A DNA stretch of 64,000 nt. Origin: Parasphingorhabdus sp. (GTDB lineage: Bacteria; Pseudomonadota; Alphaproteobacteria; Sphingomonadales; Sphingomonadaceae). The stretch lies in assembly GCF_036964675.1 (NCBI RefSeq), contig NZ_JBALTF010000003.1:5628-69627 (forward strand). The letters run 5' to 3'. Below the pieces are notes generated by a model. That model was not told where the DNA came from, searched no databases, and was given only the letters and a program-made list of their open reading frames with translations. The position numbers and the translations under genes are program-made. Positions 10,511 to 49,054 of this stretch are shown piece by piece; positions within the stretch are counted from its first letter, which is position 1, and each line of letters starts with the position of its first letter.

Positions 10511-10822
10511 ATGGAAACGCAGAATATCCGCATCCGCTTGAAGGCATTCGACCATCGGGTTCTTGATCAGGCAACTGGTGATATCGCTGACACTGCACGC
10601 CGCACTGGCGCGCTCATCCGTGGACCGATACCATTGCCAACGCACATCGAAAAATTCACCGTAAACCGCGGGCCTCACGTTGATAAAAAGTCTCGTGAGC
10701 AGTTCGAGGTACGGACCTATAAAAGGTTGCTCGATATCGTGCAGCCTACGCCGCAGACGGTCGATGCTTTGATGAAGCTTGACCTTGCTGCTGGTGTGAA
10801 TGTCGAAATCAAGCTGGCCTGA
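10511..10822 (+). CDS. rpsJ: 30S ribosomal protein S10 (NusE)
   Basis: [28 protein letters not shown]. Confidence 0.99.
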
Positions 10823-11018
10823 GCCAATTGATTAGCGATGCCCGCCCAGGCGGGGATCCAGACGAACGACAGGATACCGCCGGTTTTCACCGGGCAGCGT
10901 CCTCCGTCTTGTTCCGAAATTTTCGGAACTATTACAGCCCGGACGGGGTGACGCATGACAATTTGGGCTGGCAAGCCGGACGAAATGGTTCGTTCGGCCT
11001 CTGTGAAGGAGATTGATC
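10823..11018 (+). promoter_or_regulatory. Structured rpsJ-rplC intercistronic RNA (candidate r-protein leader)
   Basis: Stem 10897-10908/10942-10954, pseudoknot-compatible CAGCCC(10935-40)/GGGCTG(10965-70), 10-bp hairpin 10975-10998 before the SD. Confidence 0.5.
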
Positions 11019-11867
11019 GTGCGTACAGGCGTGATCGCGAAAAAAATGGGGATGACCCGCTTGTTCCAGGAAGATGGTCGGCATGTGCCGGTTACCGTTC
11101 TTTCCCTGGAAGAATGTCAGGTTGTTGGCGCTCGTAATCAAGAACGTGATGGCTATTTTGCTGTCCAGCTTGGTGCAGGCCCCCGCAAAGCGAAAAATGT
11201 TAACAAGCCGCAGCGTGGAGCTTTTGCCAAGGCAGAAGTTGAACCAAAAGCGCGTGTTGCCGAATTCCGGGTTGATAGCGAAGATGCTTTGCTCCCCATC
11301 GGCGCTACCGTAACTGCTGACCATTTCATTGCCGGCCAGATGGTCGATATCCAGGGTGTTACCCAGGGTAAGGGCTTTGCTGGTGCGATGAAGCGTTGGG
11401 GTTTCGGCGGTATGCGCGCAACTCACGGTGTTTCCATCTCTCACCGTGCCCATGGTTCCACTGGTCAAAACCAGGATCCAGGCAAGGTTTTCAAGGGCAA
11501 GAAGATGGCCGGCCATATGGGTTCGAAAAACCGCACCCAGCAAAATCTGGAAATCGTCCGCACAGACGCCGATCGCGGTTTGATCTTTGTGCGTGGCAGC
11601 GTTCCCGGTTCAAAAGGTGGCTGGCTTCTCGTTAAAGATGCAGTGAAAACCGCTCTGCCCGAGGGCGTTCCATTCCCGGGTGCCCTGCGCCGCAATGCGG
11701 ATGAAACGGCAACGGAAGAAGCACCGGCAGGCATGATCGAAGCGGATGCAGAGATCGAAACGCCGGTTGGTCCAACCCATGCAGAAGTAGCCGAAGCGGC
11801 TGCAAAGCCAGCTGGCAAATTGGACGAAAAGTCTGATGCAGCAGATGACGCAGGGAAGGAGGGCTAA
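11019..11867 (+). CDS. rplC: 50S ribosomal protein L3 with acidic C-terminal extension
   Basis: GTG start 7 nt after AAGGAG; [23 protein letters not shown]. Confidence 0.98.
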
Positions 11868-45194: not shown

Positions 45195-45270
45195 GTCATC
45201 CTGAACTTGTTTCAGGACCTCCATCGGCACTGCACAATCTCACGAGGTCCTGAAACAAGTTCAGGATGAC
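45195..45270. repeat. REP/MITE-like element with perfect 27-bp inverted arms
   Basis: GTCATCCTGAACTTGTTTCAGGACCTC (45195-45221) and its exact reverse complement (45244-45270). Confidence 0.9.
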
Positions 45271-45539
45271 GAGAGTTGGATGGTTCACTAATGCACTTAT
45301 CCCGATCCGTCGGTACTGAGCTTGTCGAACAGCTTGTCCAACAACGGTTTGATTTTCCCTTCTCCCTCACGAGAGAGGGTGATCCGCCCGTTATAGCTAG
45401 CGGTGCTCACCTGGGGATAATCGCCCAGCATCTTTGCGGCGATACCGGCTTCCCAGTTGCAAAACATGCAACATATTATTCTCCATTTTCAATTGAAACC
45501 TAATTCTCGTGCGACCATCTGGAGTTTGTAAGTTACGCA

Positions 45540-45564
45540 GGAAAAGAGATGTTTGATCGGCGTT
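45540..45564 (+). promoter_or_regulatory. ECF (EcfG/SigT-like) promoter candidate
   Basis: GGAAA-N16-CGTT versus GSR consensus GGAAC-N16/17-CGTT; just upstream of the sORF RBS. Confidence 0.4.
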
Positions 45565-45582
45565 GAAATAAGGAGAAAATCC

Positions 45583-45657
45583 ATGAGAACGCTTTTCAAT
45601 ATAGTCGCCGCCCTGTCCGTTAGCAGCATCATTCTGCTCACGACGGTTCAGGTCTAA
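45583..45657 (+). CDS. 24-aa hydrophobic small protein MRTLFNIVAALSVSSIILLTTVQV
   Basis: AAGGAG 7 nt before ATG; single hydrophobic helix; below ORF-track cutoff. Confidence 0.7.
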   Translation: MRTLFNIVAALSVSSIILLTTVQV

Positions 45658-45669
45658 GGCAAAAAGTTA

Positions 45670-45766
45670 CAATCCCGGCTGCCGCATCCTCCTCCCGATT
45701 GCGGCGCCGGGATTGGTCCAAAGGTCCGGTCCCTCCTCCATCCCCTCCCAAGAGCAGGGCCGGACC
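45670..45766 (+). ncRNA. Tandem hairpins with CCUCC anti-SD loops (cuckoo/alpha-r14/CcsR-like)
   Basis: Hairpin 45670-45715 with CCTCCTCCC (45688-96) in the loop; hairpin 45723-45766 with CCCTCCTCC and CCCCTCCC. Confidence 0.55.
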
Positions 45767-45812
45767 AGCGGACAAAATTCCATAATTCGCGATCAAATCC
45801 AAAATTTGGAAA

Positions 45813-45867
45813 TTATCCACCATATCAGCAGCAGTTTTCCACCGCTAAGTGGCCTGCCTGTGGATAA
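45813..45867. promoter_or_regulatory. Cluster of three DnaA-box matches
   Basis: TTATCCACC (45813-21), TTTTCCACC (45835-43), TGTGGATAA (45859-67; perfect TTATCCACA on minus strand). Confidence 0.6.
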
Positions 45868-45919
45868 CTTTCGTTTTTCAACTAGGAGCGACTCGGAATA
45901 CAGAGTCATATATAAGTCA

Positions 45920-46300
45920 TCGGAAGGGAAACGGACGAACCAGCGACCAGTCAGCAATGACCCGCAGGACAGCCCGGAACCCGGAAGATGATTGAGACGA
46001 CCGGTTTGTTTTTCGCAAGAAAAGGAAATTGATCTCTGGATCGATGATCGGAGAAAGTCCGAAAAGGGAAGGCGCAAGCCCGATCGGATCAGACGGACTA
46101 AGATCATCAGGTGACTGGACCAAGTGCGGGTTGGAAACCGAAGCGAGGAAGCGCAAGCGGACACGTGGAAAACCACTGACCATTAACGGATTTGGACCGG
46201 AAACCGGACGCCGAACAAGCGGCTACTGGAATCGCAAGAGGATAGTGGCCCCAACAGAGGCGCAGCGGGAGCTTATCTTCGGGTAAGCTCCCGTTTTTTT
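45920..46300 (+). ncRNA. Putative ~380-nt GGA-rich multi-hairpin non-coding RNA
   Basis: 24 GGA versus 1 TCC in 45922-46270; five GCAA-tetraloop hairpins; ends in an intrinsic terminator; no credible ORF. Confidence 0.65.
46265..46300 (+). terminator. Intrinsic terminator of GGA-rich segment
   Basis: GCGGGAGCTTATC-TTCG-GGTAAGCTCCCGT stem (cUUCGg loop) followed by a T run (46294-46300). Confidence 0.88.
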
Positions 46301-46834
46301 GTCCTGCTTGGCCGCTGCGATGAACCGGTCTCCGGATTTTATGATTCATCCTCCGCTTTTTCGATGACCAGTGATCGCCATCACAGTGCGCTCAAAAAGA
46401 CTCGGCTAACCAAGGGCTGCGGTATCGGTCAGATGAAGCATTCCACTCGATATGATCCCGGTGCCGCACCAAGCCCTTTTGGGTATTCAGGAGAAGTTCG
46501 ACGGCCATTGCGACCCGACCGTCGGACTTCTCTCGTTGCGTCCGATGGAGTCGCCAAAACCGGGCTTCGGCACCCCAGTCTGCGCCCTTTTGGATAAGCG
46601 GTTCCATCTGCATGGCTGGCGCTTTTGGTCGGGACGAAAATATTCCCGTCGCTGCCTTAAAAACTACTTGCTGTTCCTCTATTGCAATGTCGAAGTCGGC
46701 AAAACCGGTTGCGAATATCTCCCGGGGCCAGGTTGATCGACCGGTTCGATTACACTCAGGAATTTTACTGGTTTCGTCATCTATTCAAATGGCGGTAATA
46801 TCGACTTAACAATTTCGAAATTCAGTAGGAGAGA

Positions 46835-49054
<2,220 letters not shown>

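Follow-up and report, generated by a model that had tools for sequence, protein, structure and literature searches.

The interval studied here lies at positions 45540-46834 of a 64,000-nucleotide (nt) stretch of Parasphingorhabdus sp. DNA (the window, to which all positions refer), directly in front of the catalase-peroxidase gene katG. We hold, with moderate confidence, that it contains two independent, co-inherited RNA genes of the clade Sphingorhabdus/Parasphingorhabdus: a stress-type operon with an RNA of the cuckoo type (element 1), and a gene for a scaffold-like RNA of 385 nt (the long RNA). A preliminary description of the interval had placed two RNAs on the same strand and had joined them with katG into one regulatory circuit. 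The sequence features listed in it, i.e. GGA richness, UCC-type loops and promoter motifs, are all present where they had been placed, and their conservation in register in 32-38 related loci indicates that they are more than chance. The presence of two separate same-strand RNA genes was likewise borne out: both are conserved, with the small open reading frame (sORF) and hairpins of element 1 and the long RNA kept together in 36-38 loci, and both are separately transcribed in metatranscriptomes.

The two RNA genes are transcribed as separate units. This was observed in 12 metatranscriptome runs from at least seven studies, with depths of ~2 to 40 that were reached even where a run comprised 20-50 million bases (runs X12, X13, X39 and X40 are DNA and were left out of the expression evidence). 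Contigs confined to the long RNA, within 45932-46272, occurred in 12 of 12 runs, the longest measuring 306-362 nt in nine of them, and none of these 12 runs yielded a contig on katG or on the upstream genes. Separate and weaker contigs over the sORF and hairpins of element 1 were found in four runs, in three of which the gap from ~45780 to ~45932 between the two RNAs was uncovered. One such contig (run X50) starts at 45581 and covers the sORF and both hairpins, which indicates that these are co-transcribed and weakly favours a start at the downstream, EcfG-like promoter of element 1.

The long RNA (45918..46302, plus strand, 5' end approximate) has a length of ~385 nt, a promoter of its own and a strong intrinsic terminator, formed by a 14-bp hairpin and a U-run (46264-46302, plus strand). 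Its most conspicuous property is the abundance of GGA: the segment 45895-46300, purine-rich on the plus strand, contains 25 GGA and 2 TCC, and the best 400-nt frame holds 26 GGA, compared with a mean of 6.1 (standard deviation 2.8) per 400 nt in the window and a next-best value of 15. Mononucleotide shuffles of the same segment gave 11.6 +/- 2.8 GGA, with a maximum of 22. This richness is a family trait, with 15-25 GGA per RNA and 13 sites kept in at least 25 of 32 sequences. In most loci, the long RNA has the highest nucleotide identity of its neighbourhood (e.g. 90-92%, against 84-87% for the enzyme genes and 74-82% for the lipoprotein gene), and divergent copies are still 73-78% identical to that of the window.

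Searches with nhmmer recovered the long RNA from 38 loci, all in the clade Sphingorhabdus/Parasphingorhabdus. Ten of these were reached by a scan for katG, 25 by one metagenome scan with a 20-nt invariant word, and three through the upstream short-chain dehydrogenase gene (sdr), the latter including the complete genome of Sphingorhabdus sp. Alg231-15. The apparent restriction to one clade is a lower bound, because it rests on one scan each of the genome and metagenome collections, the latter requiring an exact 20-mer. The katG scan did not find the long RNA beside katG in other Sphingomonadales or in other phyla, and it was also absent next to the sdr orthologues of Blastomonas, Sphingomonas flavalba, Parasphingorhabdus marina and Sphingorhabdus sp. 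Alg239-R122, where synteny is broken at all four sites.

No Rfam 15 family matched the long RNA of the window at the gathering score, and at E <= 10 nothing consistent emerged from the window region, four divergent full-length homologues and one partial copy. Similarly, we found no described RNA of this kind from Sphingorhabdus or other Sphingomonadales in the literature. The long RNA belongs to no described family. A coding function was considered and rejected: no ORF is shared across loci, one-nucleotide indels occur, and a minus-strand ORF of 88-106 amino acids is broken in several lineages, the latter being a by-product of the U-poor plus strand. In the deposited sequence of Sphingorhabdus sp. 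Alg231-15 (LT703001.1; locus L110), a hypothetical protein of 150 amino acids has been called at L110:10483-10935, over the long RNA (10668-11061), i.e. the RNA is mis-annotated in public genomes; as an RNA, it escapes present annotation.

The secondary structure of the long RNA was modelled on 32 distinct sequences and comprises 102 pairs with 96.7% paired cells. Double-sided changes occur in 24 pairs, against 10.6 +/- 1.9 in column shuffles, none of 500 of which reached 24; when the partners were slid by 1-3 columns, 8-11 pairs with such changes were left. Five consecutive hairpin domains, all on the plus strand, are supported by this covariation: domain I (45919-45989, GCAA cap at 45954), II (45990-46042, cap at 46015), III (46043-46108, cap at 46074), IV (46110-46205, cap at 46153) and V (46210-46261, cap at 46234). 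Among the 160 tips of these sequences, 153 are GCAA, and the variants are mostly still of the GNRA type (GCGA, GUGA, GUAA).

Domains III-V hold three tandem modules ~80 nt apart, marked by CCGAA..GGAAG(G)CGCAAGC(C) and by GGAAGCGCAAGCGGA versus GGAATCGCAAGAGGA, in which GGAA, a short stem, GCAA, a second short stem and GGA follow each other. The corresponding pattern GGAA-[2-3 bp]-GNRA-[2-3 bp]-(N)GA has 47 matches in the 38 RNAs (14.7 kb), compared with 11 in the remaining ~2.6 Mb (both strands counted). Hairpin loops present none of the GGA motifs, which are located in internal loops, at junctions and in stems. To judge from the alignment, the GGA motifs of the two strands of a module face each other across symmetric purine loops, 5'-GA-3' over 3'-AG-5', probably as tandem sheared G.A pairs. 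Such facing motifs would account for much of the GGA richness and would explain that two thirds of the GGA bases are formally unpaired in the model.

The repeated modules, the strict GCAA tips and the position-by-position conservation suggest that several equivalent sites of the long RNA are recognised by proteins or by other RNA surfaces, and point away from a base-pairing regulator. From the repeated architecture, the abundance and this conservation we infer a multi-site scaffold or decoy for a protein, in which each module would form one binding site; taken alone, this assignment is a tentative one. We rank next after it a compact RNA that folds upon itself, with its five GCAA loops, which belong to the GYRA type, docking into helices, be it as a ribozyme, as an assembly of RNA alone or as a stable ribonucleoprotein core. 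The docking of GYRA loops into helices is described in PMC7913685, and self-folding of this kind would agree with the five GNRA caps kept almost without exception, with the high conservation of junctions and internal loops, and with the rank of the long RNA as the most conserved element of its neighbourhood. Nevertheless, we regard it as rather improbable, given that neither tertiary covariation nor a pseudoknot was detected, that the known distribution is narrow and that tandem duplicated modules suggest repeated binding sites over a single catalytic core.

The large number of GGA motifs also recalls the decoys CsrB and RsmZ, which the long RNA resembles in length, abundance, many GGA and repeated hairpins. 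A decoy of this type for a CsrA-family protein, or for another protein that reads GGA, would be consistent with the 15-25 conserved GGA, the two thirds of their bases left unpaired and the modular repeats of an abundant RNA, but it appears unlikely. Canonical CsrA sites present GGA in hairpin loops (PMC13443453), whereas every hairpin loop of the long RNA is GCAA, and the context of its GGA is mostly CGGA (313 of 659) instead of A(N)GGA. Moreover, no Rfam model of CsrB, CsrC or Rsm matches, CsrA is uncommon among Pseudomonadota outside Gammaproteobacteria according to the literature, and the sequence conservation of the long RNA lies far above what is usual for such decoys. The promoters differ as well: those of CsrB and RsmZ have GacA/UvrY sites, that of the long RNA has DnaA boxes.

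A further candidate is an Hfq sponge like CrcZ, an RNA of ~400 nt, which would meet the cuckoo RNA of element 1 through competition for Hfq. The comparable size, the purine richness and the known binding of Hfq by Cuckoo/CcsR RNAs fit this idea, yet runs of (ARN)n cover 12 nt of the long RNA, compared with 16.8 +/- 10.6 in shuffles, and AANAANAA occurs 3 times in 32 RNAs, so that we give this reading very little credence.

Upstream of the long RNA, three DnaA boxes form an array at 45813..45867: TTATCCACC (45813-45821, plus strand), the weaker TTTTCCACC in the middle (45835-45843, plus strand) and the perfect TTATCCACA (45859-45867, minus strand). A gapless alignment of 32 distinct promoters revealed corresponding invariant blocks amid variable flanks, namely TT(A/G)TCCAC, TTTTCCAC and CTGTGGATAA, the starts of which are 22 and 24 bp apart. 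Further invariant blocks are T(A/T)GG(A/T)(G/C)CGACTCG, the -10-like CATA(T/A)(A/G) and T(C/T)ATCGGA, and the putative core promoter of the window (45883..45912, plus strand) accordingly consists of T(A/T)GGAG, the invariant CGACTCG and the -10-like CATATA. It includes two GANTC sites, of which the first (45890-45894) is invariant and the second (45903-45907) is not conserved in divergent lineages. Read on the minus strand, the invariant site is CGAGTCG, which fits YGAKTCK, the sequence preferred by GcrA at methylated promoters of Caulobacter (PMC4647560). These motifs suggest a promoter that depends on DnaA and is sensitive to methylation, and from the three-box array and the GcrA-type site the level of the long RNA may be expected to follow the state of replication and of the cell cycle. 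The earlier proposal that the two RNAs have different promoter inputs is upheld at the level of motifs, as stress-type motifs in one gene and DnaA boxes plus GANTC in the other are distinct and conserved signatures.

In one of the DNA runs (X12), a contig of 822 nt matches the window at 45838-45870 only, with the sequence TTTTCCAC..TGTGGATAAC-N19-GCGACTCG and otherwise different flanks. It may stem from a more distant homologue of the long RNA or from another gene with the same type of promoter, and thus hints at more distant relatives.

The array could alternatively act mainly as DNA, i.e. as a titration or reactivation site of the datA/DARS type, with an RNA that is incidental or that modulates DnaA binding through its transcription. 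The spacing of the three boxes by two helical turns, the opposite orientation of one of them and their invariance in all 32 promoters would suit such a site. However, the boxes keep a fixed distance to the -35 and -10 blocks of the long RNA, as expected of a promoter element, the long RNA itself is under strong selection, and there is no GC-skew switch within the 64-kb window; of all the readings weighed here, we consider this one the least probable. The lack of a GC-skew switch in the window also makes a replication origin at this locus unlikely.

A connection with the cell cycle is known for another alphaproteobacterial non-coding RNA, CcnA of Caulobacter. CcnA (~180 nt) is a CtrA-activated transcript from the vicinity of the replication origin and base-pairs with the ctrA and gcrA mRNAs. 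The long RNA, to judge from its motifs, would share with it the link to cell-cycle regulators, but has twice its length, is remote from any GC-skew switch and carries DnaA boxes. For CcnA, PMC8959179 ties expression to a master cell-cycle regulator.

Element 1 displays the same order of blocks in 33 distinct loci: a palindrome, TTGAAA-N14-gaCCATyT, GGAAA-N16-CGTT, AAGGAG, a 24-codon ORF and two hairpins. The sigma32 (RpoH)-like promoter motif of the window, TTGAAA-N14-gaCCATcT (45493..45520, plus strand), has hexamer blocks that are invariant or nearly so in all lineages and a variable spacer. We compared it with the sigma32 consensus of E. coli. The RpoH1 consensus CTTGAA-N15-16-CCTATAT (PMC4843759) was used for comparison as well, and the good fit of the motif makes it a candidate promoter. 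Downstream follows the EcfG-like motif GGAAA-N16-CGTT (45540..45564, plus strand), which agrees with eight of nine consensus positions and is conserved in all lineages, including its spacer. The palindrome GTTGCA-N5-TGCAAC (45456..45472; also listed as a hairpin) is situated directly upstream of the sigma32-like -35 block, is conserved in all lineages, including divergent ones, and could be the site of a regulator; in the window, a minus-strand ORF of 56 codons that is poorly conserved (45297-45467) overlaps it with its start.

The 24-codon ORF, MRTLFNIVAALSVSSIILLTTVQV (45583..45657, plus strand), is preceded by AAGGAG at 45570-45575 and encodes a hydrophobic peptide. Its length is 24 codons in all 33 loci, its variable columns are distributed over codon positions 1/2/3 as 15/6/18, and the replacements are conservative and hydrophobic. 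This pattern of substitution indicates that the sORF is probably translated; it has no match in Pfam. Across 45540-45602, both the EcfG-like spacer and the initial 20 nt of the sORF are invariant, even at synonymous sites. As GGAAAAG of the leader could base-pair with CUUUUC (codons 4-6), the 5' region may be under a constraint at the RNA level.

The ORF is followed by two adjacent hairpins on the plus strand (45670..45715 and 45717..45772), which fold at -62.3 kcal/mol (z = -7.0 against shuffles) and show compensatory changes in 10 of 28 pairs. Their loops read CAUCCUCCUCCCGAU and CUCCUCCAUCCCCUCCC, the first carrying CCUCCUCCC and the second CCUCCUCC and CCCCUCCC. In hairpin 1, exact CCUCCUCCC is present in 24 of the 33 loci and CCYCCUCCY in 29, while hairpin 2 has degenerate C-rich variants in 22. 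A U-run after hairpin 2 is found in L088, L110 and L112 (L numbers designate loci).

These hairpins are best read as a CcsR-like anti-Shine-Dalgarno RNA in a new host order and with a new companion ORF. The cuckoo family is characterised by 2-4 adjacent hairpins of 24-50 nt without a multiloop and by loops of 9-27 nt (PMC4615179), with which the hairpins of element 1 (46 and ~44-56 nt, loops ~15-20 nt) agree in size. Like the cuckoo/CcsR RNAs (including NfeR1), element 1 has adjacent hairpins with CCUCCUCCC anti-Shine-Dalgarno loops, in the two-hairpin (HP2) variant, a location 3' of a small ORF and a heat-shock-type promoter motif upstream. The same layout of promoter, sORF and 3' hairpins is found in the ccaF1-ccsR1-4 operon of R. 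sphaeroides, where two-hairpin CCUCCUCCC RNAs are cut from the 3' untranslated region (UTR) of a small-protein mRNA under an RpoHI/HII promoter and act in the oxidative-stress response. Of the context termed CIN1 (co-transcription with DUF1127, RpoH promoter), element 1 possesses the sORF, the sigma32-like motif and one contig over ORF and hairpins, but no DUF1127. Indeed, its 24-amino-acid hydrophobic peptide differs from the DUF1127 protein of the cuckoo/CcsR ORF, it forms a single two-hairpin unit in place of the cluster of four ccsR units in Rhodobacter, and, unlike CcsR, it carries an EcfG-like motif beside the sigma32-like one. Scores in Rfam remain far below gathering both for ar14 (RF02344; 17.0 and 19.2 bits versus 58.8) and for CcsR1 (RF02791; 21.5 versus 65.3); covariance models perform poorly on this family according to its authors. 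The published cuckoo survey covers Rhodobacteraceae and four families of Rhizobiales, not Sphingomonadales.

A second RNA to which element 1 bears likeness in some features is GsrN of Caulobacter crescentus. Both have a promoter motif of the EcfG type, a C-rich loop that is exposed, and katG as an associated gene. Activation of katG by GsrN proceeds through a G-tract in the leader of katG; for element 1, by contrast, neither a G-tract nor favourable pairing was found at the start region of katG, and its link with katG is not conserved. The authors of GsrN did not find a gsrN-like gene in Erythrobacter (Sphingomonadales).

The preliminary description had regarded the motifs of the two RNAs as complementary and had supposed that the GGA-rich RNA acts as a sponge that titrates the C-rich cuckoo RNA, joining general stress, cell cycle and KatG. 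The opposite compositions (GGA-rich versus UCC-rich), the different promoter signatures and the adjacency of the two genes in every locus with enough flanking sequence would all suit this idea; as the whole neighbourhood is syntenic, however, adjacency is weak evidence, being expected from shared ancestry. The pairing itself argues against it. Duplexes of the two C-rich loops with the long RNA (RNAduplex) reach -17.5 and -23.0 kcal/mol, values that 23% and 46%, respectively, of random 384-nt segments from the window equal or better, i.e. they do not exceed background. The longest Watson-Crick complementarity between the two RNAs is 7-9 nt in 29 of 30 genome pairs and 11 nt in L004, with a shuffled mean of 7.7, and these matches lie in stems and outside the C-rich loops. 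For pairing, the loops require partners resembling GGGAGGAGG, whereas the long RNA has two GGAG, one of them inside the terminator, and almost no sequence of the GGAGG type; most of its conserved GGA lie in structured internal loops. There is thus no detectable direct pairing between the two RNAs, and titration by base pairing is accordingly quite unlikely. In sum, none of the readings as a CsrA-type decoy, an Hfq sponge or an RNA sponge passes every test.

Regarding katG (46835..49054, plus strand; a Pfam peroxidase with a signal-peptide-like N-terminus), the position of the two RNAs directly upstream of this putatively exported enzyme holds in the window, but a fixed partnership does not: sORF, hairpins and GGA-rich RNA stay together across genomes, while katG varies and is missing downstream of the long RNA in L086, L105 and L110-L112. 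The region from -60 to +30 of katG, taken as its start region and not as a mapped leader, forms with the loops a best duplex of -11.8 kcal/mol and ranks 40 among 51 genes of the window, and katG was for that reason rejected as a target of the loops. The two RNAs have no fixed tie to katG, which is a neighbour whose partnership with them is without support.

Under the interpretation preferred here, two genes would work side by side. In the first, the sigma32-like and/or the EcfG-like promoter would drive the hydrophobic 24-codon ORF, the 3' region of which would form the two-hairpin RNA, and, if this RNA acts as CcsR, NfeR1 and GsrN do, its exposed CCUCCUCCC loops would bind mRNAs by pairing at stretches that are G-rich or resemble a Shine-Dalgarno sequence. 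The level of the second RNA would follow replication and cell-cycle state through the DnaA array and the GcrA-type site, and each of its modules would offer a binding site to a protein. Several observations weigh against this interpretation. The promoters of both genes were assigned by motif matches only, and the EcfG-like -35 reads GGAAA, not GGAAC. In the lineage of the window, hairpin 2 is not followed by a U-run, and in the fourth run with contigs of element 1 (X51) the sORF/hairpin contig extends to 45834, so that read-through toward the second gene is possible. The contigs of the long RNA end at 45932 and 46262-46272, which match a variable patch and the terminator palindrome; these ends may be assembly breaks, and the transcript is consequently bounded, not mapped. 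The genes adjoining the long RNA do not encode a protein partner for it, and the two RNA genes could be kept constantly adjacent by a functional link that is invisible to complementarity, e.g. a shared chaperone.

A more far-reaching view, which we offer as speculation with a low probability, would treat the 385-nt RNA as a new class of large structured RNA gated by DnaA and CcrM/GcrA. Its five identical arms, tipped by GCAA, would capture several copies of a protein or self-assemble and would report replication status to post-transcriptional control, possibly opposing the neighbouring anti-Shine-Dalgarno RNA via a shared partner.

The genes around the locus are catabolic and encode acyl-CoA dehydrogenases, short-chain dehydrogenases, a major facilitator superfamily (MFS) transporter, PrpF, an amidohydrolase and an RraA-like protein; among 20 flanking ORFs scanned, none has a sigma-factor or response-regulator domain of Pfam, and ARAGORN detected neither tRNA nor transfer-messenger RNA (tmRNA). 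The upstream anchor (acyl-CoA dehydrogenase, short-chain dehydrogenase, lipoprotein) is constant across loci. The katG side, by contrast, seems to turn over by gain and loss, given two divergent alleles at the site (~91-99% and ~76% amino-acid identity), the absences mentioned above and an sdr gene of ~0.8 kb often inserted between the long RNA and katG. The katG product shares 90-94% identity with proteins encoded in genomes and metagenome-assembled genomes of Sphingorhabdus and Parasphingorhabdus, and near-identical DNA occurs in metagenomes from freshwater, estuary, ice and marine samples. Insertions of 70-880 nt part the two RNA genes in L112, L101 and L094; in the last of these (L094:609-1494, minus orientation), the inserted ~880 nt include an apparent small minus-strand gene. 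In the stretch that separates the lipoprotein gene from the sORF promoter, a perfect inverted repeat of 27 bp with a spacer of 22 nt (45195-45270) is probably a palindromic element resembling repetitive extragenic palindromes (REP) or miniature inverted-repeat transposable elements (MITE), and its arm recurs elsewhere in L001 (there downstream of katG), L027, L053 and L060. Finally, a possible 73-codon minus-strand ORF rich in Arg, Trp and His (46392-46613), situated between the long RNA and katG, is 42-88% conserved by tblastn in several loci and has no Pfam match.

These results indicate that neither the complementarity of GGA and UCC motifs nor the proximity of katG makes a regulatory circuit here. 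With element 1, the cuckoo/CcsR family reaches into Sphingomonadales and acquires a different companion ORF, which helps to distinguish the essential traits of the family, namely its loops and 3'-UTR layout, from a dispensable one, the DUF1127 protein. Non-coding RNAs that are long, highly conserved, abundant and without assigned function are rare in Alphaproteobacteria, and we found in the literature none of such kind that is driven by a promoter with DnaA boxes. If its promoter works as read here, the long RNA would link chromosome replication to regulation at the RNA level in widespread aquatic bacteria.

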